64,000 nucleotides of DNA from Squalus acanthias (GCA_030390025.1 CM059431.1:118732001-118796000); one strand, 5' to 3'. Shown: positions 26,713 to 46,085, numbered from the stretch's first letter. Notes: generated from the letters alone by a model not told the origin. Program-made: numbers and translations.

Positions 26713-27704
26713 AGTGGGATACTTCACTGCACCTCCTTCTGCTTGAACTCATACTCAATACCTGCTACTGCCCTCTCAACTACTTCCCCCTTGGCCAGCC
26801 TTGCTATTTCATCCTCTCATCCTGCACACTAGGCTAAGCTGCCTTAGACATCTTCAAAATCCATCAGCAGGGCATACACTAACCCACTGCCACTCTTCTT
26901 GCAGGAGAAGCTAGCACACATGAGAAAGACACATCAAGAACAGGAGCAGGTCCCAGTAGACTACAACCTCTGACACCAACAGAGAAGATAACCATTAACA
27001 TCATTGGCAGAGGAAGGACATGCAGCAGTAGAGATGGCCAGGATGGAGGTCACGCGCAATAGGGTGGTTGGGCATCTTCCCTTGCTTTTCTGTTTCTACT
27101 TAACTCTCTCATTCGCTCACTCACACATTGACACGCAAACTCTCAGCATGACAACCTGGTGCTCCATAGCGCTGCCACTCATCTGCTTACCTTTGCAATT
27201 ATGTGCTAACCATTGCCCCTCTCCCCTTTTTCTAGGTTATTCTGTCTATTCAGGCCCTACAGCCACAAAGACTGAGATGCCTAAAAACTGTGCACCCTCA
27301 CTCGCAATTACCCTTCCAAGCACCAGCACGGAAATCAACCCCATGGATGTTCTGTCGTCTGCTCTCCTCCAAGTCAGTGGCAGTGGTAAGCCACAGTCCA
27401 ATAGGACAGCGTGTCTGCTTCCTCACAAACGCCCTCAACAATCTCCACCCTGGTGCCACAAAGCCAGCTGGACCAGGCTGCTCAGCAGCCACCTAGCTGC
27501 CGCAGTCTAAAATGGGTCCCTCTCTGGCCCAAGCTCCTAGTGGTCCTCAACCACCAGCATCCCAAGAACTCTTGTCTGATTTACTTTGGTCCTCAGGCCT
27601 CTCTGTTCTACAGAGGGAATTATGCCCAGCTTGGGGCGCTGAAGAATTTAGGCCCCACTGTGCGTAAAATCATTGGCAGGAATTTATATCCTCCCACAGC
27701 ACAG

Positions 27705-28489
27705 CGTAAGCCTTTTTCTTACTACTGTTCGGACTTTGAGAATTACGATTAAGCGTAACAATGACAGACAATTATGTGATCAATAAAATTGGTCTTTATT
27801 CACACTACAGTTCAAAATTCAAGTGTACATCGAAGCATTCTCTCACGATCAATATGCTTCCAATTTACCCATACATAAAAGTTCTCCCCACCAACTTGCA
27901 CACTACTTCCGGGCGATTTATATCCCAAGTCAACTGTACATAAAAGTACCCTTTAACAATATCTAAGCTCTATGTCCGACTTTTATACATACTCCTTTAT
28001 CTCTGGGTGATCGGTCCAGGAAAAGTCATAAGACGAAAAACATAGACTGGCCAGCTTTCTTTGTTCGTCTGTTCTTCCGTTCTGTCTTCTTTCTTTCTGA
28101 ATTTCCTACCTCTGGGTCACATCTTTTATAGGGCCTTTCTGCCAGCCTCCCTCATATATCACTGTCTGCCTTCCTCTGATAGGTCAGTTTCTCTCCAAAT
28201 CTTCCCTGATTGGAGTTCCTTCTGCATGACACGTTCATGTTCCTGTGATGTGTGTGGGGGCGGGACTTCCTCTTCAACCCGGTGTCTCCTTCCTGTCCAT
28301 GTGGCCTCGCAAACAAAGGACCATGCTGACCACCAGGCAAAGGACCCCCTGCTGACTTCCGCCATTTTGCGTCTTCACAAACAAAGAACACATGCTGACC
28401 TCCTACATTTTGAACCATTTCACAATTTGTTCTGAACTTCGATCTCCAAACAGTAGCAACGGTTTTATTACAGTTTTTAGAATCTTACA
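27705..28489 (-). repeat. 3' LTR of provirus (785 bp)
   Basis: Direct repeat of 44832-45563 with a few indels; left terminus CGT (mutated TGT), right terminus TTACA; minus-strand AATAAA near 27795. Confidence 0.93.
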
Positions 28490-28600
28490 GTCCTCCCTTA
28501 AATGTCTCTCACGTTTATTCATGAGCAGATATTTCACCAGAGTCGGAGCATTATGTATTCCGATCCCCTTTTATCCCCTATAATACTATATCTATACTAT

Positions 28601-31600
28601 TGTGGCTGCTGCGAAGCACGAATTGAGGCCGAGTCAATATGTGGAGCACATGGCTTTTAATTACATACTCCTTGGCAAAATGGCTGCTACAACTTCTCTC
28701 TGCAAAACCCTACTCGTGGAGGGCGACGCCCGCTCTTTTTAAGTTCACACTGAGGGCGACGCCCACTCCTTTTTTCATGCCTTAAAGGCAGCATGCGCCT
28801 TAAAGGCAAGGTGCCCGATTTATTGTCCACGGACGGAAAAGTGGATTGCGCCCGTTTAGGTGGAGATCCGCCACACAGCTGCCCCCAGAATCTGCTTAGG
28901 AGGTGTGGACGAGATGGTGCGGCGGTCTGATGGGCCGGCCAGAGCGGCTCTTGCAGGACGCCGGTGGACGTGGAATGGCCGGGCGTGGAGCAGCCGGGTG
29001 AACTGGCTTGAGGGCAGGTCGGCCGCATGGCGGTGGACGAGCTACAGAGACCTGCTCACCGGGCTCCGAGTGTGCTGGCTTGAGTCGGTCAACCGACACT
29101 TTTTCGGTCCTGTCGCCCACTTGCAGAGTGAAAAATTTGTCCCCAGCCTGTAGCACCTTGTAGGGGGTTGAAGGGGTCCACGGTGGGCGTCGTGCCGGAC
29201 GAAAATGAACCGTGCCTGGTGCAGGCTTAGTGGGACGTGTGAGGTGGATTCGCCGTGTCGGGCAATGGGCACCGGGGTGAACTGTAGCGCCGGTGAGGCG
29301 AAGTCGTGGCGTTGCTGGTCGGCTGACCAGGGTGTCATGGCGGTGGGCAGGAACTCGCCAGGTACGCACAGCGGCTGACCGTACACGAGCTCTGCTGCCG
29401 ATGCGTGGAGGTCTTCTTTAACCGCGGTTTGCAGGCCGAGGAGGACCCACGGGAGTCGGTCGGTCCAGGCGCTGGCCTGGAGGCTGGCTCGAAGAGATGC
29501 CTTCAAGGATCTGTGGAACCGCTCACACAGTCCGTTGGCTTGGGGGTGGTACGCTGTGGTGCGGTGAATGGTCACCCCGAGATTGCGTGCGACGGTGGTC
29601 CAGAGTTCAGAGGTAAATTGCGGACCTCTGTCAGACGTCATGTCGGAGGGGACGCCGAACCGTGCGACCCAGGTGCTGACGAAGGCTCTGGCGATGTCGG
29701 CAGTGGTGGTAGAGGTCAGTGGAATTGCCTCGGGCCAGCGCGCGGTGCGGTCAACGATCATCAGCAAGTGCGTGTGGCCTTGCGACGGCGGCAGGGGCCC
29801 GACGATGTCCACGTGGATGTGATCAAATCTACGCGAAGGGACGGTAAACTCCTCGAGGGGTGCTTTCGTGTGTTGCTGCACATTGGCCCGTTGGCAGGCT
29901 AGGCAGGAGTTGGCCCAAGTACGCACATCCTTGCGAAGGCCGCGCCAGACAAAGCGTTTGGCTACCAGTTTGATGGATGCGCGGGTGCCGGGGTGGGAAA
30001 GGTTGTGGAGAATCTCGAATACCCGGTGGCGCCAGGACGCTGGGACGACGGGCCGAGGTTGACATAGGGATATGTCGCACTTGACCGTGACTGCGGTCGG
30101 GCCACAGGCGATGTCGGCCAGGCATAGCCCTGGTAGGTTGGTAGGTGCGGAGAGCAGATCAGGATCGGTGATCTGGTCTGCTGCGAGTTGAGCGTAGTCG
30201 ACTGCCAGGTGTGCGGCGTGGATGGCGGGGCGGGAGAGGCAGTCGGCTACCACATTGTCTCGGCCGGAGACATGTTGGATGTCCGTGGTGAACTCGGACA
30301 CTGCCGTGAGCTGGCGCTGCTGCCTGGCGGACCAGGGGTCGGTTGTCTTTGCCATTGCGAATGTCAGGGGCTTGTGGTCGACAAACGCAGTGAAGGGGTG
30401 GCCCTCCAGCAAAAAACGAAAATGGCGGACCGCCAGGAACAGCGCGAGGAGCTCGCAGTCGAAGGTGCTGTACTTGACATTCCGGGGGGCGTAGTTGGCG
30501 GCTGAAGAAGGCAAGTGGTTGCCAGGCGCCGTCGACCCACTGCTCATACACGGCGCCGACCGCGTGGTCGGAGGCGTCCATGGTGAGCGCTACCCTGGCA
30601 TTGGGCTGTGGGTGCGCGAGCAGCGTGGCGTTGGCGAGCACGGTCTAGGTGGAGTCGAAGGCGGCTGACACGTCTGCCGTCCATTCGACCGCCATCTTGC
30701 CGCTCCTGCCCCGGAGGGCTTCATACAGGGGCCTCATGAGGGACGCCGCTTTGGGGATGAAGCGGTTGTAGAAATTCACCATCCCGAGGAACTCCTGGAG
30801 GCCTTTGATGGTGGTGGGGCGGGGAAATTGTTGGACGGCCTGCACCTTGGTGGGCAGGGGAATGGCGCCAGCATGGGTGATGTGGTGGCCGAGGAAGTCG
30901 ATCTTGTCCAGGCCGAAATGGCATTTGGCTGGGCTGAGGATGAGCCCGTGGTCGCTGAGGCGCCCGAACAGGATGCAAAGGTGTTCGAGGTGTTGCTGCT
31001 TGGAGGAACTGGCTACCAGGATGTCGTCCAGGTAGACGGACAGGAACTTCAGGTCCCGAAGGACCGAGTCCATGAGCCGTTGGAATGCCTGGGCTGCGTT
31101 TTTGAGGCCGAAGGGCATCCGCAGGAACTCGAAAAGGCCGAAGGGGGTGATTACGGCCGTCTTGGGGACGTCCGCGGGGTGGACGGGGACTAAGTGGTAG
31201 CCGCGCACCAGGTCGACCTTGGAAAAGACTGAGCGGCCAGCCAGTCTAGCCGAGAAGTCCTGGATGTGCGGCACGGGGTACCAATCAGGGGTGGTGGCGT
31301 CGTTGAGGCGGCGGTAATCCCCGCAGGGGCGCCAACCCCCGCCTGGTTTGGGGGTGATGTGGAGTGGGGAGGCCCAGGGACTGTTGGAGTGGCGGATGAT
31401 GCCGAGCTGTTCCATGGTGGCAAACTCGGTCCGCGAGATCTCCAGTTTGGCCGGGTCCAGCCTGCGGGTGTGGGCGTACACTGGGGGGCCTGTGGTGGGG
31501 ATGAAGTGTTCCACCCCGTGTTTGGCGGCCTCCGCGGAGAAGGTTGGATTGGTAAGGGCCGGGAATTCGGCCAGGAGTGCCGAGTAGTCATCTGTGGCCC

Positions 31601-32991
31601 AGGCGTGGCACTGTTATGCCATGTCGGCGGGTTGACGGGGGGCCATGGTGTTCATGTCCACGAGGTGGTGTCGAGGGATGTCTACCAGTAGGCCGTGGGC
31701 ACACAAGAAATCTGCACCGATGAGAGGGGAGAACACCTTGGCAGTGATGAACTCCCATTGGTAGCGGCGACCAGCGAGGTCGAGGGTGACTGTGCGGGTG
31801 CCGTACGTCCGGATGTCCGAGCCGTTAGCAGCAGCCAGCGCCGGTCCTCGTTTGCCCTTTCGGATGTTGAGGGCGGAGGCCGGGACGATGCTGTGCTGAG
31901 CTCCAGTGTCGCACAGGAACCGGCGGCCGGTTTTGTCATCCGTGACGTACAGCAGGGAGCCCGCGTGGCCCACGGCCATCGCGGGGGCTGCCACGGGGCG
32001 GACTTGAAAGAGCAGGGAGGTGTGCACCGTTGTGCCCTGGCGCCGAACCGTGCGTGGTAGTAACAGTGGCCCGGGTTAGTGGGGCGCGAAGGCCCCGTGA
32101 GCCCGGTGGCTGGGCCTTGTGGCCGCGTGGTGGCCGGTGAGGGGCGCGCCCAGGAAGTGGCTGCCAGGTCCGGAGTGACGTCGTGGCTGGAGTGAGCGGA
32201 CAGCAGCTTGTCGGCCTCATCGGCCAGGGCTTCCAGGTCCGTGAGGCCGGACGCCACGATCGCTGGGCGTATGCTGAGAGGTAGCTGGCGGATGAACAGC
32301 GTGCGGAAGAGGGATCCGGGTGGGCTCTCATCGGTGAGGGAGAGCATGTGGGAGAGGAGGTCCGACGATGAGGCATCACCGAGGCCTGGAAGGTCGAGGA
32401 GGTGGCAGTTTCGCTGGTATGTCGAGGCCGTAAATTTTTTAAGGAGCGCGGCCTTAAGATGTGCATACTTGCCCTCCTCTGGTGGATTCTGCAGCGCTGT
32501 CCAGACCTTCGTAACTGTGGAGCTACCGAGTGATGTGACGAGGTAGTCATACTTCGTCCCATCTGTGGTGATGTGTCGCAGCCGGAATCGGGACTCGGCT
32601 TGGAGGAACCAGGCTTCGGGCTGGTTTTCCCAAAACTCCGGCAGTTTCACGGAAACTGCATTCGTGTCCGCCATTGCAGTGCTCGGAATACCTTCTGAGC
32701 GTCAGGATCACCAATATTGTGGCTGCCGCGAAGCACGAATTGAGGCCGAGTCAATATGTGGAGCACATGGCTTTTAATTACATACTCCTGGCAAAATGGC
32801 TGCTACAACTTCTCTCTGCAAAACCCTACTGGTTGAGGGTGACGCCTGCTCTTTTTAAGTTCACACTGAGGGCGACGCCCACTCCTTTTTTCATGCCTTA
32901 AAGGCAGCATGCGCTTTAAAGGCAAGGTGCCCGATTTATTGTCCACAGACGGAAAAGTGGATTGCGCCCGTTTAGGTGGTGATCCGCCACA
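28601..32991 (-). mobile_element. Ty3/Gypsy LTR retrotransposon 2 (GC-rich), nested between env and PPT
   Basis: LTRs 28601-28875 and 32718-32991 (TGTGGC..GCCACA; about 8 substitutions and 1 indel); PBS TGGTGATCCTGACG (tRNA-Trp-like, 32700-32713). Confidence 0.96.
28896..32674 (-). pseudogene. Gypsy 2 gag-pol with a few stops and frameshifts
   Basis: Gag KLPEFWENQPEAWFLQAE, CYYHARFG..C; protease FLCDTGA; RT RPCGDYRRLN..YLDD; RNase H; integrase HNLSHPG..HVDIVGP..SDRG..ERFHR. Confidence 0.93.
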
Positions 32992-33010
32992 ATACCCCCA
33001 TTTCACATTA

Positions 33011-35873
33011 TTAAAGCTCATCCCGTAACAATTTCCTCATATGCTTAAATTGTCTTCCCTTGTTCTTTCTTTGTTTACGTCTTGCCCGCATTCCCCATTC
33101 CCACATAAGCACGATCACACACATTAGCTGTAACCATGAGCACAGTCTTACCCATGGAGCTAAGTCTGTACGATTAAATCCCAAATCCCACCAAGAGTTG
33201 CCTCGTTCATTAACATGTTATTATTCTGGCATTTGCATCATTCCTCCCTTTCAGTACTGAGAATGTCCTTCCCACTTCTCCAATCCATTTCACAAACTCA
33301 GTGAGATTTTCATTTATCCAAGGTAACCCATATCCAAATCATCTACCCCGGTTGATGCCTTAACATGCATTGGATTCTAATCCATTAAAGGCAGAATAGT
33401 CCTGTTCCCGATTTTTACCATCCTTTTAGGTTTAATACACAAAGTACTGTTAGATACCAGACATATTGTAGCATTCTTTTGCCCATATTTATACCTTGTT
33501 TCTGTGGTGGTCCAACAATAGGCACCCTGTTCCTTATAAACAACGGAGGTATATTGTTCCGACCTTATGGCAGTGACCTGACACTGATACTTGGACATCC
33601 TTGTCACGTTAAATCTGCATAACGGCTCTTCATCGTCCAAGACATTATACATACACATTGTGGTTCTTCCTTGGGCCTTATATAGATGTAATTTTACCTC
33701 ATAGAGAGATTGGTTATATTTAACAACATATCCGGGCGATGATGTATATTTATATAAAACACTATGGGGGAAAAATTTGGTTGCTTTGCGCCTCCCGTTA
33801 GTGCCCTAAGAGGGTGCTAACGGGGCGCAAAGCAACTTGCGCCCGGGCGCGGCGCCACCAACACCTCCCATGAAATTCAGCGGGAGGTTAGCGGCGGCGG
33901 TAACCGTTAGCGCCCCACGGCGCTGCGCCACTGGCGATGACGTTATCGCTGTGCACAGCGCCCCGCTCGCACCCCAGCCACGATCTTCGGTAGCGCCACC
34001 TGACTTACCGCCAGATGCTATGTCCGACGGGGTCGGAGGGCCTACCTGCGGCTGGGGCAGCGCTAATTAAAGGCGAGGTGCCGGGCGGCCATTTTTGTTG
34101 CCATCCCCGGCCTCCTCTTCAGCCCCCCCGTGGAGTGCCGGATGCGCTCCATGAGCCCGGCACTTCCCTTGAGTGCCGGGCTCTTTTGCCGGCACTCTGA
34201 TCCCTGGTGGCCCACCTGGGCCCCGGGTCATGCTGCGCAATGCCCCTCCCCTTTAACAAGGGGAGGAAGGCCTGCAGTACCGCGGCGCGACGTGCCGCAC
34301 GCAATATTCCCTCGCAGCGCTCCAAGAGGGAGGCGGGGTGCTTCCAGTAGAGCCTCGCTGCCCTCTTGGGTTGCTACCGATGAATTTCAGCTGTGGGGGC
34401 ACTACTTTTAAAGTAGCGCCCCAGCAAAATTAGCGCCCCAAAGAGGGCACGACCCAATTTTTCCCCCTAACTTTCAGGAAACCCATATTGGCTACCTTAT
34501 ACACCCGCAGTGGTACCCAAAGTTTGGACATTATGGGCATTCTTAATATGAGTCCTATCAAGCTATCATCGCTAGTCTAATTACATTCGTGTGGCGTGAC
34601 ACGTACCACAGTAAGACTTCACAACTGACACATTGTCAAATTTGACTGATACCTTTCTGCTGCCTTAAGGGGTTTATCTTCCATCCAAATTGGAACCCTT
34701 CCCTCAGCTATTCTATTCAAATTCCTCCCTATGTCCTGTAAAATCCAAGAACTCAACATCACGCATGCATCATTTTGTGCTGCCTGATCAGAGGCGTTTC
34801 TATCCTCCCTCGTCAAATTGTTTATGGCCTGTGCCTGATTTTCCAACAATTTAAACAACCCTTGTATGTGAATTGTCATGGTCAATTCTGCTTCTAATTG
34901 TACTTTCCCTATGCTATTCTGGTTTCTGCTGTAACATTTCTCTCAATTTTCCCAATTGATAGTTCAAGCTCATAATATCCCATGTATTTACCCATCCTAA
35001 TGTGGTATTCCACATCGTTGCCTTATTATTGAGCATACTGCGCTTTCTCCTCTTAGCCGGCGATTTCGGGGCTTGAGGCTCCTCCCCTATGGTCACTTGA
35101 TCGCTATTTTCCTTCCAAAAGGTTTTTATTAACTGCGCTAACCAGCTTCTAGTGGGTTCACTGCACCATGTCGGCAAGGCAAGACTAAACACATTGATAA
35201 TAACCTCCGTCGCATCTAATACAACATCATGTAACATTGACAACTCACTCGGAACCAACACCAGTCCGTTAATTGGAGCTGGGAATGGGGTGTGGCACTC
35301 TTCACTCCCTTCATCGGGTGGCACTGGTTTCTCTCTCGCCTTTAATTGAATGGCTTCTTTGGACTGATCAGGACATTGAATATTATCAAAACGATTTTTA
35401 ATTTGAGGATCATCATGGGAGAAATTTCTGTTTACACACATATATACTCCTGTGTGATTACTGGACCAGAAATTTGTCCAACGGTAACTTGTCCCATCAA
35501 TTAACGGGGTAGCTACGATTCCTCTTGCCTTCCTCAATCTCAAGTTATTTGTGGTCTCACCTGATGTAAACCGGAGTTCTAGGATCGTCCCGGTTGGAGT
35601 AGGCTCATTTGAGCATTTTAAACAAATCATTTGCCCCTCATGCACCCTCTGCTCCATTACTCTCAATGTCCAATTATAAAATGTTATAGTTTGATTTTTA
35701 ATTGTTGCATTCTTCTCATTTACAACAGAAAACCCTGTATCCAGTGAGGTTATGATTCCATTGGTGCTGTTTCCGAGCTGCTGTGATTCCTGATATAGTT
35801 CATCCCATCCACTATGAGCATCAAAGCGCTCAATACGTACAGGAGTTTCCCCATCCTGGAGCTTCTGTAACAC
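33011..35873 (-). pseudogene. env: F-like env gene B of the provirus (interrupted by MITE 33766-34467 and stops)
   Basis: N-glycosylation-rich ectodomain, KRRKR|SMLNN.. furin site, heptad regions, Cys-rich block, SWWDLGFN membrane-proximal region, TM (PWVRLCSWLQLMCVIVLMW), basic tail, stop at 33011-33013. Confidence 0.85.
33766..34467. mobile_element. GC-rich Harbinger-type MITE, copy 1
   Basis: TIR GGGGGAAAAAT, flanks TAT/TAA; inverted homolog at 37008-37734. Confidence 0.85.
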
Positions 35874-36274
35874 ACAGCACAGTTAACATTCACATACTCT
35901 TATTCACACATTCAACATCATTTCCTCTTAGTTTTGCTCCCAGCTCCTCCTGAGGTTGCCGATGTTGTTCCCAGTGTTGTGCACGACCCTCAAGTTCAAT
36001 TCCTTTAAAGTTCCCCGGGTCACTCAGGAATTTGTCCCGAGTCACCTCCTTAATTTGCTTATCAGTCAGAGTGGGGACCAACAGGTGTGTGGGGGCTCGC
36101 ATGGGTCTCCCCATTACCAATTCATGAGGGGAATGGCCCGTTCCTTTGAATCTGTTACTGCATATCCCCATAAGGATTAGGGAAAGTCCCTCATCCCACT
36201 TCGTGTACTGTTCGCTTAATTCCTTTCGCAGGGTCGACTTCAACGTACGGTTCATTCGTTCCACAATCCCCGAT

Positions 36275-37007
36275 GAAACAGTTTTAAAGAGTGTGCAGGG
36301 ACAGAGGGACCTGGGAGTTAATGTGCATAGGTCCCTGAAGGTGGCGGGACATATTGAGAGAGTGGTTAGCAAAGCATATGGGATCTTGGGTTTCATAAAT
36401 AGAGGTATTGAGTACAAAAGTAGCAAAGTTATGCAAAACCTTTATAAAGCGCTGGTTAGGCCACAACTGGAGTATTGTGTCCAGTTCTGGTCACCACACT
36501 TTAGGAATGATGTGAAGGCCCTTGAGAGGGTCCAGAGGAGATTTACCAGAATGGTTCCAGGGATGGGGGGTCTTAGCTACAATGACAGGTTGGAGAAGCT
36601 GGATTTGTTTTCAGTAGAGCAAAGTAGGTTGAGGGGTGATTTGATAGAGGTGTACAAGATTATGACAGGTTTAGATAGGCTAGACGGGGAAAGGCTGTTC
36701 CCACTAGTTTATGGTACAAGGACTGGGGACACAGATTTAAGGTTTTGGGCAAGAGATACAGGGGAGATGTGAGGGAAACTTTTTTACACAGCAAGTGGGG
36801 GGGACCTGGAACTCACTGCCGACAGAAGTGGTGGAAGCGGAGACACTCAATGTTTTCAAGGGGAGACTGGTTAGGCACCTGAAGGGAATAAACTTGCAGG
36901 GCTACGGGGATAGAGCGAGGGAATGGGACTGACTGGATTGCTCTACAGAGAGCCAGGGGCGGACTCGATGAGCTGAATGGGCTCCTTCTGTGCCATTATG
37001 ACTCTAT
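36275..37007 (+). mobile_element. CR1 3' fragment inserted in the integrase
   Basis: QRDLGV..LVRPQLEYCVQFWSP..RLRGDLIEVYKIM; (TATGACTC)n tail split by a MITE. Confidence 0.9.
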
Positions 37008-37734
37008 GGGGGAAAAATTGAGTCGCGCCCCCGTTGGGGTGCTAACTTCGCCGGGGCACTACTTTTAGTGCCCCCGCGGCCGATTTTCCCAGGTAGCATC
37101 CCGAGAGGGAGGAGGGGTGCTGCTGGAAGCGCCCCACGTCCCCCTTGGGGCGCTGCGAGGCAATATCGCGGTGCTACGTGCCGCGGTACTGCAGGCCTTC
37201 CTCTTCTTATTAAAGGGGAGGGGCCTGGTGCAGCACGTCCTGGCACCCAGCTGGGCCACCAGGGATCGGGAGTGCCGGCAAACGAGACCGGCACTCAAGA
37301 GGAGTGCAGGGCTCACGGAGAGCAGCCGGCACCCCGCGGGGGGGGCTTCGTAGGGGCCGGGGACAGCAACAGGGGCAGGTGCTGGCAGGCGGCCAGCAAC
37401 AAAAATGGCCGCTCGCCTACCTCCCCTTAAACTAGCGCCGCCCCGGCCGCAGGTAGGCCTCCCTGACCCCATTGAACATAGCATCCAGGCGGTAAGTCAG
37501 GGGGCACTACCGAAGATCGCGGCCGGGGTGCGAGCAGGGCACTGTGCACGGTGATGATGTCATCGCTGGCGGTGCAGCGCCATGGTGTGCTAACGGTTAC
37601 CGCCGCCTGTAACCTCTCGCTGAATTTTGCGGGAGGCGTTGGCAGTGCCACACCCGGGCGCTAGTTGTTTTGCGCCCCGTTAGTGCCCTCTTAGGGCGCT
37701 AATGGGAGGCGCAAAGCAACCGCATTTTTCCCCC
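37008..37734. mobile_element. GC-rich Harbinger-type MITE, copy 2 (inverted)
   Basis: TIR GGGGGAAAAAT, perfect TSD TAT, inserted in the CR1 tail. Confidence 0.88.
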
Positions 37735-37825
37735 TATGACTCTACGATTGTGGCTTACATGCCATTTCCCTTCAATTCCTAGCAATTTCAGAGTGGCTTG
37801 CATTACCTGACCTGTAAAATTACTT

Positions 37826-38023
37826 AAATAACAACAGAAAATGCTGGAAGCATTCAGCAGGCCAGGCAGCATCCGTGGAGAGAGAAACAGAGTTAACGTT
37901 TCAGGTCTGGGACCCTTAAACGTTGACTCTGTTTCTCTCTCCACAGATGCTGCCTGGCCTGCTGAGTGTTTCCAGCATTTTCTGTTGTTATTTCAGATTT
38001 CCAGCATCCGCAGTATTTTGCGA
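37826..38023. mobile_element. Penelope-like hairpin remnant (second family)
   Basis: ~75-bp inverted arms; 14-bp TSD CTGTAAAATNACTT (37812-37825, 38024-38037); GAAACGTT half of a hammerhead on the minus strand; related to 62513-62603. Confidence 0.75.
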
Positions 38024-39302
38024 CTGTAAAATGACTTCCCTGGCCTGACCCTATCACGGGGGACATCACCATCTGGAGAATACCCCTTCAACTAGGGTCT
38101 TGGCCGTCCATGAGGCTGTGACTGACTTGCATGGGACGACTTCTACCCACCTGGTAATCTTGCACCGTTAACACTCATCTGGCTCCCTGCTTAAAAGAAA
38201 AAACAGACAATCCATTGCAGCTTTCCCAACAGCCAAGTGGGTTAATTCGTCAATTTCCGATCCCCTTCTGTCAATGTGGGGAAACATCCACTCAAATTAA
38301 AAAACTTACAACTTTAACAATGGCCAAAATGTTTACAAAACCCACAGCTGGTTGTGGAGTTAAAATAGAGTTCACAGCTGCTTGTGAAAAGAGTTAACTT
38401 CTTTGTTTTGCATTTCAAAAGAAGACAAACACAGACGTCAATCACTGTCAGGTTTTGTCACACAACTTCTCACAGCTTTCAAGTAAATCTTTACTTTTTG
38501 CAAAGCCTTTATAACTTTTAAACCTTTGTTAAGATCCTGATCAATTCACTTCAGCAGGTAAAAACATCAGACATCCTAAACATTCTGTGAAGCAATTCCA
38601 CACAATAGCATTTCCTTTTTTTTTCCTGGTCATCCATACTTGTAATTGGTCAAAAATGTCAAAAATTCACACAAATTTACACCAACCAGAATTTCATTGT
38701 GGCCACAATAAAAGTCTGGTTTTAAGAGGTTAATCAACCTCAATAACTCCAATTCAATTCAAAACAATATTTTAAACTAACCTGTGTCACTTGAAAAACA
38801 AAGGAAGAAGCCACACTAACAAAGAAACATTCACACATACTTTGTAAACTTTCAAATTGGCAACTGTAACTTCAAGGCTTAAAGTGTATTGAAATTGAAT
38901 TAACAAACTTAAAATGGCACACGCTTGTCCATCATCCAAGACAAGACTACAAAGGGTTAAACAGCTTCTAGCTCTCAGTGCAAAAAAGTGGGTGGAGCTG
39001 AAACAAACACACCAGTCACTGTGGGCTGGATTTTGTCAGCGTGGGCGGGCTGGGGCGTGTCAGGTGGAAATCGTGTCAGGACTCCGACTCCTGAGTAAAG
39101 TGTTGAAAAAGTGGGATTTTCCCCTAATTGGGCAATTGATTTCCTGCATGTGGGAACCACTGGCCCAATGAGTCTTTTCATCCAGAAAGTCGCCTCCAAT
39201 GACGTCATCAATGCTGCTGGATTTAAGGCCTGCAAGCAGCCTTGCTTCTTCTGGAGACTGCAAACGCTTTGGACATTGTATGAAGGAGTTGATTTCTCGA
39301 CA

Positions 39303-41248
39303 ATGTCCACGATCAAGCAAAAGTGTGCACCTCGGTTTGATGAGCCCTCCCCTCCAAGCTCTGGTGCACGGAGCCAGATGTGATAAGGAGGTGCTGTTCC
39401 CTTCCTCAGGGAGAAAAAAGCCACCCCAGCAGACAAAAGCTGTGTGGCTGCAAGTGGCCCAGGAGGTCAACTCCATTTCAATGAGCCACAGAACCTGGCT
39501 GCAATGCAGGAAGAGGTTTCATGACCTTCTCCGCACAGGAAAAGTGAGTATGACTTTCCCATCACCCTCAATCTGATCCCCATCGCCTCTCCTCACCAGT
39601 ACTCTGCTTTGCCAACCTCTTCCTCCACATCCCACTTGACACTTAGATCCCTGAATCCTTACCCATTCCCTCTCTCTCTATGATCACATTCACTTAACTA
39701 TTCGACCATGAAGCCCTCACACTCTCTATCACTGTGACAACAACAACTTACAACACACAGGGAGGGTCCTTTGTATCCTTCTAAGCATCTATGCTATGGA
39801 TTCTCTACACTCACTCCTTCATTCTCGCTCAAACTCCACTCGTCTCCCTCATTGCAGGAAAAGAGAGCCCACAATAAGAGGGAAAGAGCCATGACAGGAG
39901 GAGAGCCACCCTCAGTAGCCCAGCTCACCCCCTGGGAGGAGGCAGCCCTGGAAATCGCTGGGATTGAGGACGATACCCAAGTGGGGGACGGACAGATGGG
40001 CGCATCACAGCAAGCTGGTGACAGAATAGCTTTGGCATCTCTCTCATTGACATTGCATGAGTCACTGATAATGAATCTGATGCTCTAACAGATTGACTTA
40101 TGATCATCTGCACTATTCAATGTGCATGTAACCTTGACCTCACATCTCTAACTCTTTCCTTTACTCCCCCACAGGACCATCGAAAGCCCCAGTCCCCACT
40201 GTCCAGGAGGAAGAACCTGAGCTTCCAGACTCCTCAGAGGAAGCTGCAACCACTGAGGGTGCAGCGTCAGCAGAATTCAGCGCACGCAGCACCAGCGCAG
40301 ACACTCACACCTCGGTGGGACCTTCGCGAGATAGAGTAGTGTTGGCATCTGGTGTATCACAGCTCACAAGGGACAGCAGTAGAGAGTCCTCGTCGGAGGG
40401 CGCAGGACTCTGCCAGCTTGGCTCAGCTGCATGTGGACCCTGTGCCTCCGGGTCCATCCAGAAGGAGAGCGGTGCTGGAACTCCAGGAACAGGTGCAGGA
40501 GTCTCTGGCAGGTTTTGTCTCCAGGGTCACTGCAAGTGGAGGAGGAGTCCATTGCGAACTTGAGCAGAGCCGTTGTGGAGGCATTGGCGCATGAATGCAT
40601 CTCCGCGGAAAGGATGGCAACCTCCGTGGAAAGGATGGCTAACTCCGTGGTAAGGCTGGCTACCTTAGAGGAGAGGATGGCTACAGTAGAGAAGAGGTTG
40701 GCTACGGCCATGGAGGAGCTTAGTCGCCAGAGTATGGAAATCATGGTAATTGTTCAGATTAGAATGATATCTCTGTGGATCGATGGTCAGCTATTGAGCA
40801 AACAAACCAGACCTTCATGGACAACCTCTGGAGTAGGACTTCCAGTGCAGAAACGGGTCCTCATGGCTCCCCTGAAGTGCAGCAAGGTGCTGTCAAGCCA
40901 CATGCTAGCTCTGAAGTGGGGCTGACCCATGACAGGGATGTTGGTGGCAGAGAACAAGGAAGTGGGGGCTCCTCTCCAAGCACTCGCACGACCATGCCAC
41001 TGCAGAGCCCTCAGTCAGAGCCCCACCAGAGTCCTCACCCAACTGAGATGGGCATCTCAGCCCCTGCACAGCTGCAGGAGCAGCAGACTGTTGGCGAGCC
41101 CGCACAGGTTCGCCACCCTAGAGGACAGCCGTCAAAGGCGTCGAGGCAGGAGCAGCAAGAAAGTGAGCAAGGGGCCTCCACATCTGCTGAAGCCACAGGG
41201 GAAGCACCACGTAGGAGCATGTGTAAGATTAAGATAAAGCACAAGTAG
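39303..41248 (+). pseudogene. Harbinger Myb/SANT-like DNA-binding protein, 3 exons, frameshifted
   Basis: APRFDEP..WLQVAQEVNS..RTWLQCRKRFHDL|GTGAGT; TTGCAG|EKRAHNKRERAMTGG; third exon with heptad repeats. Confidence 0.8.
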
Positions 41249-41647
41249 TCACAAGGGTAGTCACTTGGGTGATGTGATGTTTTGTATTTGGACCAGCCAT
41301 CATTGTCATTGTATTATAAACAGATTTGATGGCAAACTGTTGAAGTTGTGGCCTGTGTCATTTCGCAAATGGGACTCTCACATTAAGGGCTTAGGGCGCC
41401 TTGCAATTGTCAGTATGGTGGTCAGAGTGATAGGAATCCGTAGGTTCTTGTCCATTGTGGATGCTCTGGTAAGAAGGTGCGAGACAAAAGTGTTTGATTC
41501 TGCAGGCTCACCAAATCTGGCCAAGATGAGTGCGTCCCTTGCATCCTTGGCAGCAATGTTGTCGTGCGCTGGCGCCTTCTGGCCTGTGCATTTTCAGGTG
41601 GGTGACTAGCAGCTTGGCGCTCCATTTGATGCTCCTGCTGTTGGTGC

Positions 41648-43028
41648 TGTAAAATTCGCAATTATCGCGATTCGAAATAACGAGATAAAGCAGATTTGTT
41701 TCATCAGTTTTATTTCAACGAAATGCTGTCATGATTAAACAGGACACAGAAGCCTGTAAAATGGCTGCCGCGCCTCGTGGCAGAAGCTTCCAGAATTTTC
41801 AGGGGGCAGACAAGATGGCGTTCGAATAAACATTTCAGTATAAGATTGGTTAATACGCAGCAAACACTAATAAAGACAGGATGCAACCTGTCTGCATTCG
41901 ACACAATAGCAAGAAATAAGTGCTGGAATCGTTTTCCATGCACAAGTAAGGACCATTGTACTGGGCAATCGAAGGCCCATCCAGATACATCAATACGCAA
42001 ATTCCCCACGGCTCTACAATGAGAGAGCCATTCTCGGGTGATTAAGTCAGTATTCGAGGAGGCCCCAAAACCAGTCATGGAGGTTCCTACCCGGTTCAAC
42101 AATGGGGAAAACATTAACGGATAGTTGGCCAGTTTAAGGTGCTACCAATACCCATTAATGGAAAGAATCGCCCCATGCTGGGAGTTTTGTGCACCAGTAT
42201 TACACAAAGGACAAACATCAAGATTTGAGCAGGAGATAAGGGAACACAGCACTATAACTATAGTGAACAAATGTCCATCGGTCTCTTGATTCGACTTTTG
42301 ACTCGGGCTGAACTCTTATTATTATTCTCTTATCTGGCTGATGACTGCTGAACTCTTATTCGCTTGCCACTTCATGGACTCGCTTGACTGGTGAGCTTTT
42401 GATTGTCTCTCTGGACTTCTACAACCGTGTCCGAGCACTGTCGAGTTCTTCATGACAACGGGGAGCACAGCCTGCTTGCCGGAGCAGCGAAGATAAACAA
42501 GTGGGGTACAGAGACCCCTTCAAACACGTGACAGTCAGGCGCTGCAACGAAACGAGCCAAGTGCCTCAGTTTAAAATTCTCCGAAGTATCACGAGTGGTG
42601 AGCATGTTTCCAGATCCTACAAATCTAGATTAGTGTAGGTATTGATAGGGGAGGGTGGTTTTATTAAGGATAAATATAATGTGTTCCCCTTTTTACGATG
42701 TGCCGTGCGTTCCTCATTACCCTAGACCAAGTTTTATGAATGTATGTATACTTGTACTGTCATTAATTTGTGCCTATGACATGTACTTCATGATTTTGGA
42801 CGTTATGCAATAAAGGTTTCCATTTCGTACTATTCAACTGAGTCTATTTGAGTTTTCTCTGCATTACTGCTCTCGCACCTAAGTCCAGTGTTAGAACCGT
42901 AAGGGCGAGTGGGTCGAACCACTCACAGGTGCTTATTGCAACAAGGCTGGCCAGAGACCAGAGCAAGCAATAGTATTAGGCAACGAAGGCCTAACCCCGC
43001 ACAAGCACCTACGACCGAACCCCTTACA
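41648..43028 (+). mobile_element. Long solo LTR (1381 bp), copy 2
   Basis: TGTA..TACA termini, TSD GTGC, homologous to 5213-6850 except in the central segment. Confidence 0.92.
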
Positions 43029-43774
43029 GTGCTGCTGTTGTTCAGGGTTCTGCTGCTGCCGTGGCTGGTCTTCATCCGAATCTGATGTCCAGGAGGAAAG
43101 GAATTAAATGGTCACCATGCTTCTGGTATATGCCTCAGTTGGGGAAGCGCTCATTCAAGGTGGCGAGAGGGGTTTCCCAGGAGGTCACACTGGAGATGGG
43201 TGTCAGGCTCCAAACTTCCACAACAATGAGTATGCCTGCTAAAAGCTCCCCCAGACCTGAGACAACAAAGTTCTGCCACCTGCAAATGATCATCGGTGAA
43301 AACTCCTTTGTAATGGTGAAGCTGCAGCTGTTAGTAAGCAATGCACTAGTGAGGCCGCCAGGATTACCTGGCATGCTTCAGAGGAGGCGTGTAGGATGGG
43401 AGAAATGTCTAAAAATCGGAAAGGCCTCTCAAAATGGGATAATAGAGGTAATTAAGTGGTTGCTAAGGGCCTTAAGGGTCTATCCTGCCTCTTGGAGGCG
43501 GGATGGAAATAGGCTCAGAAAACACGCATTTGGGAAAATTGCTTGGAGGTGGGATGGAGGCGGGATCGGGCCCGCCCGCTATTTTTTGCAATTTTACCAC
43601 CTTGCATGCCTCCAAACCCGCCTCCTCGTGCTTGGCAAAATCGAGCCCTTTCTTTCAAGAAACAGAAAACTTCCACACTTTTAACACACACTTTCACACA
43701 AACCGAGATTCCAGCATTCTTTTAACGTTCTTTTCAATCAGCAAACCCTGTGTTTTACTTGTTTTGGACAGAAA

Positions 43775-44796
43775 CTAATAGCTTTGTGTCGGTAAAACTT
43801 TAATTTTCCCCTTCTTTTTCCTTCTCTTAAATTGCCTCAGCAACTTATTCTGTCTCCCTCCCTTTTCTGGTGGGGTTAACTTCATTTTTCCATCTTCATC
43901 CATTTCACTTACAGCTGCCCTTTGTTCAACTGCAATGAAATGTCCTTGGGGTTCACCTCCCATTTCTGGTTTCCCTAAATCACCCACCATTCCTTTCAAT
44001 GGCGCCATGTTATACAGTATGGTATAATCACTTTCTAACACCCCTCTGTTCTGTCCTCCGAAAGGGGAACCAAATTTCTGCTGCCTCATAGGATTCATCG
44101 GCGGTGGGACAGGGGTTCCGGTACTTCCAGCAGGATTCTCAATTCCCTGTATTGTGACCCCTCATCAGACCACTTTCCTTCCCCCTCTACTTCCCCCTCC
44201 ATTTCCCCTTCCTCTGGGGTCTTTAAGCATATTATCCGAGCTTCCAATTGCTCAATTTCCTTTCGGCATTTAGTGTGATCAGCTTCTCCCTCTTTATGTT
44301 GCCGCAACACCTTCAATGCTGTTTTTACATTGCTTAACTCTTCCTCAGCCGAGGCTGCCTGCCGATGTTGCTTATGGCTTTCTTTCTGCCATGCATCAGC
44401 TCTTCGCGAACACTCTGTCACCTGAGACTGCAAGTATTCCATTGTTACTTTCCCCTTTCACTTTCTCAGCTTGTCGCTGTTCTTTTAGTTCCTCTAACTT
44501 TCTTGACTTGCGACCATTTCCCTGCCGCATGCCTTTCGTTTCAGTTGCTCAATCTCTCTGGATTGTTCATCTATCACTTTCTTATTTTGAACTAATTGTC
44601 TTTGATAGGCTAACAGCCATATCGCTTTATACCATGGCCTCTTTCCGAACGGACCTTCCATCCATTCCTTTTCTTTTTGTATGGTGTCATTATTCTGCAC
44701 AATATCTCTAACCGATGGTTTATCGCTATTGATTTTTCCGTGAATATATTTTTCTAGCAAATCCTCCATACTGTCCGGCATTGTTATAAAAAACAT
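43775..44796 (-). pseudogene. gag: Provirus gag N-terminal coiled-coil region, truncated
   Basis: Starts just after the PBS; IEQLKRK..LQSQVTECSRRADAWQKE..EADHTKCRKEIEQLEARI coiled-coil; PMRQQKFGSPFGG. Broken into three ORFs. Confidence 0.7.
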
Positions 44797-44810
44797 TTTT
44801 TCCCCTCAAT

Positions 44811-44828
44811 GTCCCTTTGTGGTCGCCA
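44811..44828 (-). promoter_or_regulatory. Primer-binding site, tRNA-Arg(TCG)-like
   Basis: TGGCGACCACAAAGGGAC, 3 nt from the 5' LTR; one mismatch to the recalled tRNA-Arg complement TGGCGACCACGAAGGGAC. Confidence 0.8.
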
Positions 44829-44831
44829 TTA

Positions 44832-45563
44832 TGTAAGCCTTTCTCTTACTACTGTTCGGACTTCGAGAATTACGATTAAGCGTAACAATGACAGACAAGT
44901 AGGTGATCAATAAAATTGGTCTTTATTCACACTACAGTTCAAAATTCAAGTGTACATCGAAGCATTCTCTCGCAATCAATATGCTTCCAATTTACCCGTA
45001 CATAAAAGTACTCCCCAGCAATTACACGCTACCTCCGGGCAATTTATATTCCAAGCCAACCATACATAAATGTGCCCTTTAACAATATCTAAGCTCTATG
45101 TCCGACTTTTATACATACTCCTTTATCTCTGGGTGATCGGTCCAGGAAAAGTTGAAAAATATCTTTGTTCTTCTGTTCTGTCTTCTTTCTTTCTGAATTT
45201 CCCACCTCTGGGTCACTTCTTTTATAGGGCCTTTCTGCCAGCCTCCCTCATATATCACTGTCTGCCTTCCTCTGATAGGTCAGTTTCACTCCAAACCTTC
45301 CCTGATTGGAGTTCCTTCTGCATGACACGTTCATGTTCCTGTGATGTGTGTGGGGGCAGGACTTCCTCTTCAACCCGGTGTCTCCTTCCTGTCCATGTGG
45401 TCTTACAAACAAAGGACCATGCTGACCACCAGGCAAAGGACTCCCTGCTGACTTCCGCTATTTTGCGTCTTCACAAAAAAAGAACACATGCTGACCTCCT
45501 ACCTTTTGAACCATTTCACAATTCATTCTGAACTTCGATCTCCACAGTTTTTAGAGTCTTACA
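44832..45563 (-). repeat. 5' LTR of provirus (732 bp)
   Basis: TGTAAG..CTTACA termini; direct repeat of 27705-28489. Confidence 0.93.
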
Positions 45564-45574
45564 ACAGCGCATTG

Positions 45575-46085
45575 ATTCACCATACTGGTCTCCGTACCTA
45601 AGGAAGGATATACTTACCTTAGAGGGGGTGCAATGAAGGTACACTAGACTGATTCCTGGGATGAGGAGAGATTGAATAGAATGGACCTATATTCTCTGTA
45701 GTATAGAAGAATGAGAGGTAATCACATTGAAACGTATAAAATTCTGAGGGGGATTGACAAGGTAGATGCTGAGAGGCTGTCTCTCCTGGCTGGGGAGTCT
45801 AGACCTAGGGGTCATCATCTCAGAATAAGGGGTGGGGCATTTAGGACTGAGATGAGGAGAAATTTCTTCACTCAAAGTGTTGTGAATCTTTGGAATTCTC
45901 TACCCCAGAGGTCTGTGGATGCTCAGTCATTGAACATATTCAAGGCTGAGATAGATAGATTTTTGGACACTAAGGGTGGAAAGGTGGAGTTGAGGTCGAA
46001 GATGAGCCATGATCTTACTGAATGGCAGAGCAGGCTCGAATGGCCGTATGACCTACTCTAGCTCCTAAATCTTATGTACTTATGC
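45575..46085 (+). mobile_element. CR1 3' fragment
   Basis: MRGNHIETYKILRG..RRNFFTQSVVNLWNSLPQ; (TTATG..) tail. Confidence 0.88.

Follow-up and report, generated by a model that had tools for sequence, protein, structure and literature searches.

What kind of retrovirus left the element between positions 27705 and 45563 of the window, the whole 64,000-nucleotide stretch of Squalus acanthias DNA analysed here, and what does its envelope gene say about its origin? The initial annotation had described a fully bounded endogenous provirus, lokiretrovirus-like with an F-protein-like env, hidden by roughly 11 kb of nested insertions and possibly of an undescribed chondrichthyan family. The provirus itself is real and fully bounded, lies on the minus strand, and has all the boundary features reported for it: paired LTRs, the TSD ACAG, a PBS and a PPT. 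Direct repeats were found at 27706-28369 and 44833-45465 (three blocks, 92-96% identity) and extended by eye to 27705-28489 and 44832-45563, with ends TG..CA, where the 5' base of the LTR reads CG in one of the copies but TG in its partner. The two LTRs have diverged by a K2P distance of 0.065 (45 differences in 732 aligned columns, with 53 gap columns). The element integrated once and left a 4-bp duplication behind. Its primer was tRNA-Arg, the PBS TGGCGACCACAAAGGGAC matching the tRNA-Arg(TCG) gene of the same genome, with the CCA tail added, at 17 of 18 bases. Because the LTR has 43 scored matches in the genome (906 first-look candidates) and env has 133, the provirus is more than a product of chance. 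The features, with the evidence for each, are as follows.

27701..27704, no strand: left copy of the TSD ACAG, read from the sequence
27705..28489, minus: 3' LTR (785 bp); repeat search, reading by eye and LTR alignment
28490..28499, minus: PPT AAGGGAGGAC, adjoining the 3' LTR
28598..32991, minus: nested Ty3/Gypsy-like LTR retrotransposon; absent from the second copy, LTR alignment, ORFs
32992..33763, minus: env C-terminal part; ORFs, homology and motif reading
33764..34472, no strand: GC-rich SINE-like insertion within env; absent from the second copy
34473..35863, minus: env N-terminal two thirds; 84-89% identical to the 564-aa env ORF of L011
35890..36276, minus: C-terminal fragment of integrase, directly continuous with env; homology to L012 pol
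36277..37747, no strand: window-specific insertions, a LINE 3' fragment and a SINE-like stretch; absent from the second copy
37732..38161, minus: integrase core pieces, pol residues ~954-1026; homology to L012 pol
38151..39020, minus: non-coding 'A' region and 104-bp leader; DNA alignment
39021..43647, no strand: 4.6-kb nested insertion; absent from the second copy
43648..43880, minus: start of the 'A' region; 88% DNA identity to L012 5592-5754
43877..44826, minus: gag N-terminal third and first ~80 capsid-region residues; homology to a better copy
44811..44828, minus: PBS for tRNA-Arg; complementary to the 3' end of tRNA-Arg(TCG)
44832..45563, minus: 5' LTR (732 bp); repeat search, reading by eye and LTR alignment
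45564..45567, no strand: right copy of the TSD, the same four bases beyond the other LTR

At least four other mobile elements inserted into the provirus later. Nested DNA, delimited by its absence from a second copy of the element, occupies 28598-32991, 33764-34472, 36277-37747, 37826-38023 and 39021-43647; together these make up about 11.4 kb, close to the first estimate. The Gypsy-like element has its own LTRs (28598-28875 and 32715-32991, 96.8% identical), ATAC on both flanks, and long minus-strand RT and integrase ORFs that are only 25-30% identical to the retroviral pol. The SINE-like insertion in env (33764-34472), for which Rfam gave no match, resembles a stretch at ~37000-37500, with similar ORF text at both places. 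The LINE 3' fragment, overlapped by a plus-strand ORF at 36128-36772, gave no Pfam hit and was assigned by eye from its similarity to longer LINE ORFs in the related loci L012 and L013. The 198-bp stretch 37826-38023, specific to the window, lies within the integrase core pieces. The 4.6-kb insertion, probably a DNA transposon, holds a plus-strand Myb/SANT-like ORF (39172-39576; PF13873, E 2.4e-8).

With the nested DNA removed, the provirus reads as a mosaic in the order gag N-terminus, 'A', leader, integrase C-terminal half and env. Of its genes only the gag N-terminus, integrase's C-terminal half and env are left, together with an untranslated segment; protease, RT and RNase H are missing. 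The gag N-terminus (44826-43877), split across three reading frames, is 61% identical to the gag of the better copy, charged and heptad-rich; in its best 28-residue segments six of eight a/d positions are hydrophobic and neither Pro nor Gly occurs, a crude heptad count that makes a coiled coil possible, and Pfam gave no SMC hit. The 'A' region is 75% DNA-identical to a segment 3' of pol in L012, and the leader (38254-38151) corresponds to the stretch directly 5' of the env start in L011, a sister copy. Integrase is represented by two small pieces (37824-37732 and 38161-38060) and a longer fragment whose 36273-36019 portion is 78% identical to L012 pol residues 1025-1109. Integrase homology begins at pol residue 954-961 both here and in all six other loci fetched on the criterion that integrase adjoins env (L020-L025). 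Since these six share the breakpoint, the rearranged genome itself appears to have been copied many times, and the locus belongs to a rearranged, non-autonomous family.

Autonomous relatives are present in the same genome. L012 has an open pol of 1291 aa with RVP, RVT_1, RT_RNaseH, RNase_H, Integrase_H2C2 and rve domains, in which RT_RNaseH and RNase_H constitute a dual RNase H, and its C-terminus carries a GPY-like motif after integrase (by eye). L028 has a pol 76% identical to that of L012 and, immediately after it, an env related by homology to that of the window family. The L012 type and L028 both bear the env type of the window, and env and pol have therefore travelled together for some time. 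The gag of L013 has one CCHC knuckle (PF00098, E 9.8e-6). Outside sharks, the closest RT relatives are in frogs and coelacanth, with pol 50% identical to the amphibian and coelacanth relatives, and pol relatives are annotated 'NYNRIN-like', by annotated name only. In a PDB search, PFV integrase was the best integrase match (E 1.8e-33), and MLV RT scored 257 bits vs 224 bits for foamy PR-RT. The dual RNase H of the relatives and the LTRs, PBS and env of the window are traits of Retroviridae in the wide sense.

The window copy, having no RT, is placed through its 128-aa integrase fragment and through these relatives. Its integrase clusters with those of L012, L028 and P0020 (SH-aLRT 100) and falls outside the integrase clade with the lokiretrovirus signature, in a tree whose deep nodes are not resolved. 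Both RT trees are quick searches with SH-aLRT support only, on references without fish or shark foamy-like ERVs, and their lokiretrovirus rows were labelled by RT motif from the supplement of PMC7947760, not by named references. In the 43-row tree the lokiretrovirus-signature clade is supported at 100 and the canonical retrovirus clade, with L012 inside, at 99; across the trees the L012/L028 RT lies inside the canonical clade (98-99) and outside the lokiretrovirus-signature clade (100). With viral references added (52 rows), the lineage falls in a 16-row clade (92; inner 13-row set, 91) with SnRV, amphibian, coelacanth, bird and turtle sequences, and six foamy viruses together with gamma and epsilon viruses occupy the other canonical sub-clade; support for the SnRV grouping is moderate (91-92) and the SnRV branch is long (1.5). 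Forcing the lineage together with five lokiretrovirus-signature rows cost 52.8 lnL (AU p 0.0006), and forcing it together with foamy viruses cost 22 lnL, where rejection was not reached (AU p 0.079). The RT placement and the AU test largely refute a lokiretrovirus identity for pol, and the lokiretrovirus-like label of the initial annotation is not supported. The TSD ACAG, the zf-CCHC knuckle of L013 gag and the GPY-like motif of L012 are class I (ERV1-type) traits; PMC4299795 gives a 4-bp TSD, a gag zinc knuckle and a GPY/F motif after integrase as class I/SnRV-type. The SnRV clade comprises fish, amphibian, reptile and bird ERVs (PMC12193657), and SnRV-like ERVs occur in the elephant shark (PMC4422223).

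In the window, frame changes, stops and the SINE-like insertion disrupt env; the locus now has no function. The signal peptide starts at ~35863, in a frame different from the remainder. The N-terminal part holds the surface subunit, an RRKR site at 35051-35040 and a long heptad helix region, with seven N-x-S/T sites in the first env ORF, and is interrupted by frame changes near 35801 and 34930 and in-frame stops at 34621-34619 and 34579-34577. The C-terminal part comprises the Cys-rich domain, a second heptad region, WWD (33193-33185), a hydrophobic membrane anchor (33160-33101) and a tail ending at the stop 33013-33011, with in-frame stops and two frame changes from ~33379 to 33200. The ~25 residues after RRKR are only weakly hydrophobic in the window family and more hydrophobic in P0006, a full-length shark relative. 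No gamma-type CX6CC motif was found in the three frames of the window env, agreeing with the first reading, or in L011, L013, P0003, P0006 and P0018. By sequence, the env family gave 19 hits in 1.84 billion proteins, and all 11 that were looked up are chondrichthyan, which supports the suggestion of a chondrichthyan family. Values of dN/dS for env were 0.31-0.83 in 11 pairwise comparisons (≤0.58 in eight of them), each blending pre-integration selection with the neutral decay that came later.

In sequence, env showed no detectable similarity to F proteins: PF00523 was absent at E ≤0.1 from the env ORFs of the window, of L011 and of L013 and from the 19 relatives, and Pfam and PDB sequence searches returned nothing for env. 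The proposed F-protein likeness stands at the level of predicted fold. Structures were predicted for the L011 env ORF (mean pLDDT 54, with residues 201-265 and 340-525 at 70-90) and for P0006 (mean pLDDT 56), both models having low mean confidence and an unusable first ~200 residues. With Foldseek against the PDB, all 42 matches of the L011 model listed to rank 50, in a ranking with gaps, were paramyxo/pneumovirus F proteins (best E 4.3e-8), with no gamma-type Env among the structural matches listed to that rank. In a VIA wide search, NDV F came first for P0006 (Z 9.7 over 317 residues), followed at Z 7.2-7.5 by F of PIV5, Ghana virus, hPIV3, RSV, measles virus and hMPV, and by foamy Env (8rm0, Z 7.2, 15% identity; 8rm1, Z 7.4, 13%), which had the highest sequence identity among the F-like structural rows. 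TM-scores to F proteins were low (0.2-0.4). In BFVD, mononegavirus-like virus glycoproteins came at the top, one of them from a fish, along with F0, baculovirus F, and predicted Envs of WEHV-1 (E 1.1e-7), FFV (3e-6) and WDSV (3.8e-6). These models predict an F-like fold, with F2-like strands, a long heptad helix, beta-rich domains, a second heptad region and an anchor. The initial annotation had named matches to gamma/epsilon or foamy-virus Env as counting against its reading, and this applies in part; since the F-like fold is also seen in foamy Envs and in the predicted Envs of epsilonretroviruses, it is not a lokiretrovirus marker.

How then should env and pol be reconciled? Membership of, or sisterhood to, the lokiretroviruses, a lineage sister to the other retroviruses, would make the F-type Env and a Gag coiled coil shared derived traits. 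Besides the F-like fold, it would draw on the heptad-rich gag N-terminus, given that lokiretrovirus consensus proteins are annotated Smc-Gag-Pol and that a coiled coil lies at the N-terminus of zebrafish BHIKHARI Gag (10.1101/2024.03.25.586437), on the 'NYNRIN-like' name of the pol relatives, lokiretrovirus integrase being reported near CGIN1, and on motifs that align by eye with the Loki-Str Env (R-I/V-P after the long helix, G-x-x-L-x-x-P-V, and C...LCP...CG...C), although the same motifs occur in F proteins. We regard it as highly improbable: in addition to the RT placement, the AU result and the missing PF00523, the RT of the relatives carries LPQGF without the PFGY-x-NSP signature, the pre-cleavage part of Env is ~280-300 residues long vs ~115 in Loki-Str, and the chondrichthyan screen of Wang and Han, in the accessible portion of PMC7947760, lists no lokiretrovirus, with Orectolobiformes at 0/3.

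A basal foamy-like ERV (FLERV) with a foamy-type Env, from the shark-plus-frog group of Aiewsakun and Katzourakis (2017), is also unlikely. The foamy Env and PFV integrase matches, the frog and coelacanth RT relatives and the AU value for foamy viruses are all in its favour, as is a frog FLERV lying within shark FLERVs, with pol the sole gene found, as reported in PMC5512871. However, the maximum-likelihood tree places the foamy viruses in the other sub-clade, MLV RT outscores foamy PR-RT, the provirus has a 4-bp TSD and an Arg PBS, and the gag CCHC knuckle and GPY-like motif are absent from spuma-like classes according to PMC4299795; furthermore, the extra Env module is N-terminal here and lies between the subunits in foamy Env, as described in PMC11468914. 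Quite unlikely, in turn, is an env swap, in which an SnRV-clade gag-pol acquired the F-type env of a lokiretrovirus or of a mononegavirus-like virus infecting cartilaginous fish. Such an exchange would fit the chondrichthyan confinement of env beside a pol 50% identical in amphibians and coelacanth, the top BFVD matches, and the recombination elsewhere in the family's genome. Yet SnRV Env has the same layout (furin site, ~500-residue TM, two heptad regions flanking a Cys-rich domain) and its profile alignment with the window-type env, weak as it is, is collinear (hhalign probability 27%, E 6.8e-4, 282 columns; hmmsearch 5.8 bits, rank 1 of 1002, best of 1000 shuffles 5.2 bits). The epsilonretrovirus matches and the env type shared by L028 and L012 likewise count against a swap.

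We consider it likely that what survives here is a fossil provirus from a rearranged, non-autonomous family lying in or adjoining the SnRV clade (Orthoretrovirinae, unclassified), and not a lokiretrovirus; in our verdict it adds a new member to this known clade, and what is possibly new is that the clade's Env is F-like. On this reading, Gag, protease, RT and integrase would have been supplied in trans by autonomous relatives of the L012/L028 type, and purifying selection would have maintained env during the family's spread. Such selection on env suggests spread via enveloped particles and re-infection and not by purely intracellular retrotransposition. The Env would be a class I fusion protein of F-like ('class Ib') architecture. 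In it, the signal peptide would be followed by an additional N-terminal module (~170-190 residues) and, ahead of the furin-type RRKR, by an F2-like beta/helix piece. After this site a weakly hydrophobic fusion segment, the long heptad helix and the Cys-rich beta domain would follow, and then the second heptad region, the WWD membrane-proximal motif and the anchor. More tentatively, and with rather less than even confidence, we suggest that an F-like Env is common to old fish-associated lineages and that the ancestral retroviral Env was F-like, the gamma-type being a later replacement; the lineages concerned would be the SnRV clade (shark members here), epsilonretroviruses (predicted models), foamy viruses and lokiretroviruses. 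If this is true, the shark family would also demonstrate that genomes with env but without a polymerase can reach many copies under selection on env.

Comparison with known systems sets these likenesses in context. Lokiretroviruses (PMC7947760) share an F-type Env, a furin site, the dual RNase H of the relatives and a heptad-rich Gag N-terminus, but here the RT lies outside their clade, env lacks the PF00523 hit of lokiretrovirus Env, the pre-cleavage subunit is much longer and the fusion segment is weakly hydrophobic. Paramyxo/pneumovirus F and the 'class Ib' proteins (foamy Env and coronavirus spike, PMC11468914) give the best structural matches, over ~260-380 residues; in the predicted models the likeness to F covers F2-like strands, the long helix and beta-rich domains, and the protein differs from F in having no detectable sequence similarity, in the extra N-terminal module of ~170-190 residues and in being encoded by a retrovirus. 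The epsilonretroviruses WEHV-1 and WDSV resemble it in predicted Envs that match the P0006 model, a 4-bp TSD and class I-like traits, but their RT is in the other sub-clade and their Envs are much larger (1159-1317 residues). From the SnRV clade, which includes CmiERV lineage I of the elephant shark, the family differs in its rearrangement and loss of protease, RT and RNase H, in an RT (of the relatives) 34-36% identical to that of SnRV, in an Env of ~770 residues with a short tail vs 1134 in SnRV, and in that no accessory ORFs were seen here. In its relatives it shares with that clade an RT that groups with SnRV, a dual RNase H, an H2C2 integrase and a single zinc knuckle in gag, and in Env a furin site and a long TM subunit in which two heptad regions flank a Cys-rich domain.

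The provirus is bounded on both sides, as the initial annotation had proposed. Its ends lie in direct repeats (27706-28369 and 44833-45465 of the window) that align in three blocks of 92-96% identity, and base-by-base reading gives a pair of LTRs with TG..CA ends, the outer ends of both being abutted by ACAG. The right-hand LTR is the 5′ LTR, since the coding remnants of the provirus lie on the minus strand. Three bases inward of it is the primer-binding site, TGGCGACCACAAAGGGAC, and a purine tract, AAGGGAGGAC, adjoins the 3′ LTR. An arginine primer had also been suggested; indeed, a pattern search of the same genome returned one tRNA-Arg (TCG) gene, called by ARAGORN, whose 3′ end matches the site at 17 of 18 bases, CCA included. 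None of the six loci from a first, shorter pattern for the complement of the site held a tRNA gene, and these loci are probably primer sites of other proviruses. Of 732 aligned LTR positions, 45 are substituted (34 transitions and 11 transversions, 15 of the 45 in CpG context), a K2P divergence of 0.065. A tenfold slower rate, the assumption made for the elephant shark in a passage by Han (PMC4422223), would put the age at about 150 million years; we can say no more of the integration than "tens of millions of years".

Features of the provirus and of the insertions within it, in window coordinates. Window-specific means relative to the second copy of the family, L009 and L010; L011 is a polymerase-less and L012 a pol-bearing locus of the same genome.
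27705-28489, minus-strand element: 3′ LTR, 785 bp
28598-32991, minus-strand ORFs of 515, 322 and 339 aa: nearly complete Ty3/Gypsy-like LTR retrotransposon, absent from the second copy
33193-33185, 33160-33101 and 33013-33011: 3′ part of env (WWD, anchor and stop, respectively)
33764-34472: SINE-like repeat within env, window-specific
35863-33020, minus: env, by tblastn
35882-34914: 322-codon env frame covering the surface subunit and RRKR (35051-35040)
36277-37747: LINE tail and SINE-like repeat, window-specific
37826-38023: window-specific stretch
38161-38060, 37824-37732 and 36273-36019, minus: integrase pieces, by tblastn
38254-38151: leader, 104 bp, directly upstream of the env start in L011
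39021-43647: insertion with a Myb/SANT-like ORF (PF13873, E 2.4e-8), window-specific
43880-43648 and 39020-38255: post-pol-like segment between gag and integrase, 75-88% DNA identity to the L012-type post-pol segment
44826-43877, minus: gag N-terminus and first ~80 capsid residues, by tblastn
44832-45563, minus-strand element: 5′ LTR, 732 bp

The later insertions were defined by aligning the window to the second family copy on the same chromosome (G000:C7:68.03 Mb), and the window-specific stretches sum to ~11.4 kb, close to the 11 kb of nested DNA first estimated. The nested Gypsy-like element, which has long open RT/RNase H/IN frames, its own 278-bp LTRs (96.8% identical) and ATAC on each flank, is clearly younger than the provirus around it. 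A GC-rich SINE-like repeat with the partial translation GANFAGALL... is found at 33764-34472, again at ~37000-37500 and also at 7578-8087 of L013, another polymerase-less locus; the provirus has thus been struck twice by the same repeat. These SINE-like inserts stay unclassified, as Rfam gave no match on 26-47 kb of the window. The surroundings are dense in repeats, with 3′ fragments of a LINE (CR1/L2-like by eye) just outside the provirus at 45702-46061 and inside it at 36128-36772 (plus strand). The second ERV copy carries a different large insertion (L009 2409-5700), also with a Myb/SANT-like ORF and with a further ORF that by eye resembles a Harbinger-type DDE transposase. Insertions with Myb/SANT-like ORFs in two independent ERV copies may reflect an insertion preference or merely an abundant transposon.

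The retained coding sequence was mapped by tblastn with proteins of better copies, which recovered both the gag N-terminus and the integrase fragment first recognized by eye. Among the 63 ORFs of at least 40 aa in the 36.3-43.8 kb interval, Pfam recognized no retroviral domain, whether protease, RT or RNase H, so that this copy truly lacks RT. The proviral order is gag N-terminus, post-pol segment, leader, C-terminal half of integrase and env, and the genome is therefore a mosaic. Recombination of a deleted genome with one in which integrase directly adjoins env, as in the pol-bearing relative L028, would best explain this order. Six further loci (L020-L025) were chosen for having integrase adjacent to env, and all of them share a breakpoint with the window, their integrase homology starting at pol residue 954-961; this indicates that the rearranged genome was itself copied.

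A second polymerase-less variant is represented by L011 (G000:C4:133063001-133073000) and L013 (G000:C1670:191001-201000), in which gag with capsid and a CCHC knuckle is followed by the first ~140 protease residues, the leader and env, the env frames being open over 564 and 500 aa, respectively. The genome thus carries at least two polymerase-less, env-bearing structural variants in many copies. Between family copies (11 pairs) env dN/dS is 0.31-0.83, below 1; because post-integration decay drives this ratio towards 1, purifying selection probably acted on env as the copies arose. Having no polymerase of their own, such genomes would use the proteins of autonomous relatives, as their anatomy suggests, and they offer a usable case for studying the trans-complemented spread of defective retroviruses. 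A sister family with a long pol forms the mirror image of this env-keeping, pol-less family. Five of its loci (L012, L026, L027, L029 and L030, on G000 C26, C1, C6 and C24) are 90-94% identical to one another in pol, which is open over 1291 aa in L012, and share an internal env deletion that spares only the C-terminal part and some of the long helix.

The window env is itself broken. Its signal peptide is out of frame with the remainder (frame change near 35801), a second frame change lies near 34930, in-frame stops occupy 34621-34619 and 34579-34577, and at 34472/33764 the gene is interrupted by the SINE-like repeat; more stops and two further frame changes follow from 33379 to 33200. The gamma-type CX6CC motif, said at the outset to be missing, was found in no frame of this env. 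By sequence, env is nearly an orphan: there was no Pfam match, sequence and family-profile searches of the PDB gave nothing significant, and the env alignment matched nothing in a word-index search. The one alignment to emerge, of the surface subunit to the CD44 Link domain, is not significant (E about 1; L011 env residues 82-158, window ~35640-35410), and a protein-atlas look-up returned weak leads (score 0.80) to baculovirus F, gypsy env and Fusion_gly. When 1.84 billion representatives were searched exhaustively with phmmer, only 19 proteins matched, and all 11 whose sources were looked up come from sharks or a skate. One of the database relatives, the full-length shark Env P0006, bears the UniRef name "Ig-like domain-containing".

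We turn to predicted structure, using two natural sequences, the open L011 env frame (564 aa) and P0006 (739 aa), each modelled with the family alignment. Mean pLDDT is 54 and 56, respectively, with a core (roughly residues 200-265 and 340-600) at 70-90; the first ~190 residues fall below 50 and give no usable fold for a putative N-terminal receptor-binding module. With the L011 model, Foldseek against the PDB returned paramyxovirus or pneumovirus F in 42 of 42 matches listed down to rank 50 (best E 4.3e-8 over ~370 columns; TM 0.2-0.4). With the P0006 model, VIA-align against 48,161 representative chains placed NDV F on top (Z 9.7, 317 residues), followed by F of PIV5, Ghana virus, hPIV3, RSV, measles and hMPV (Z 7.2-7.5). 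Foamy virus Env, for which an F-like fold is described in a passage of PMC11468914, lies in the same band (postfusion Z 7.4, 13% identity; prefusion Z 7.2, 15%), and the remaining rows are unrelated helical proteins. In BFVD the best matches are mononegavirus-like glycoproteins, F0, baculovirus F and nidovirus spikes; P0006 also matched the Envs of WEHV-1 (E 1.1e-7), feline foamy virus (3e-6) and WDSV (3.8e-6), and gamma-type Env was not among the matches listed down to rank 50. An F-like env fold, part of the original reading, is thus well supported for models of this quality, and the fold also appears in the predicted epsilonretrovirus Envs of WEHV-1 and WDSV.

The initial annotation had gone on to call the element lokiretrovirus-like, with an integrase phylogeny as the proposed check, and this assignment is not supported. 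As the window copy has no RT, the lineage was placed through relatives in the same genome. L012 encodes protease, RT, tether, RNase H and an H2C2 integrase in its open pol; the window integrase fragment is 78% identical to it, and L028, whose pol is 76% identical to that of L012, has an env of the window family directly after pol. The integrase tree unites the window fragment with L012, L028 and the database protein P0020 (SH-aLRT 100), resolution being confined to the shallower nodes. A word-index search listed 120 RT relatives, among which "NYNRIN-like" proteins of four frogs and the coelacanth come closest once sharks are set aside (46-51% identity). Seven of the 120 (35-39% identity) carry PFGY-S/A-NSPAEFN, the RT signature of the lokiretrovirus rows in the supplement alignment of PMC7947760; the snakehead retrovirus (SnRV) RT is also listed, at 34-36% identity to L012. 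References from IMG/VR comprised SnRV, WDSV, two more epsilon-like contigs, 16 foamy-motif and 12 gamma-motif genomes. The first RT tree drew on 114 eligible rows, with 14 of 85 Gypsy-like and unlabelled rows kept; five near-duplicates were removed before a 52-row tree with a Gypsy-like root, both trees being quick searches.

In the 52-row tree the lokiretrovirus-signature rows, assigned by RT motif, form one clade (100) and the canonical retroviruses another (98). The own lineage, that is, the RT of L012 and L028, belongs to the latter, where it shares a 16-row group (92) with SnRV and with sequences from amphibians, coelacanth, birds and turtles; the other canonical group (88) contains the foamy, gamma and epsilon viruses. 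A clade joining five lokiretrovirus-signature rows to the own lineage was rejected (AU p 0.0006, delta lnL 52.8). A foamy-like ERV, with foamy viruses and the own lineage as one clade, escapes rejection by the AU test (p 0.079), but such a tree costs 22.1 lnL units and we consider it improbable. The 4-bp TSD of the provirus, together with the zinc knuckle and GPY-like motif seen in its relatives, fits traits that PMC4299795 gives for the class I/SnRV type and not for ERV3, ERV4 or spuma; ERV4, described there as having 5-bp TSDs and neither zinc knuckle nor GPY/F motif, was dropped. According to passages of PMC12193657 and of Han (PMC4422223), the SnRV clade of ERVs is known from fish, amphibians, reptiles and birds, and SnRV-like ERVs occur in the elephant shark. 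What the window preserves is thus an ordinary fossil from a family grouping with the known SnRV clade; as a dead, rearranged and heavily invaded provirus, the locus is of little consequence in itself.

The evidence from predicted folds points to an F-like Env in a retrovirus lineage that groups with SnRV. Tempting as the shortcut is, such an env is not diagnostic of lokiretroviruses, since foamy Env and the predicted Envs of epsilonretroviruses share this fold. The Env fold of the SnRV-grouping clade and its match to the predicted epsilonretrovirus Envs may be new; the titles and passages searched held no statement of an F-like Env in SnRV-clade or epsilonretroviruses. Were the same true of SnRV itself, it would bear on the origin of retroviral envelopes and on how often they are exchanged. 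Compared with the Env of Loki-Str (PMC7947760), in which the pre-cleavage subunit has ~115 residues, that of the window family has ~280-300, the extra module lying N-terminal, ahead of the F2-like piece. The SnRV Env has the same layout as that of the window family: in its 1134-aa ORF (L064, 3151-6555) a furin site precedes a long TM subunit, in which two heptad regions flank a Cys-rich domain. With HMMER, it scored 5.8 bits and ranked first of 1002, the best shuffle reaching a barely lower 5.2. With hhalign, it is collinear with the family profile over 282 columns (probability 27%, E 6.8e-4), from the pre-cleavage strands through the furin site, the conserved Cys that follows the long helix, an L-P motif and G-x-x-L-x-x-P to the next Cys pair. 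Both results are no more than suggestive of an env of the SnRV type.
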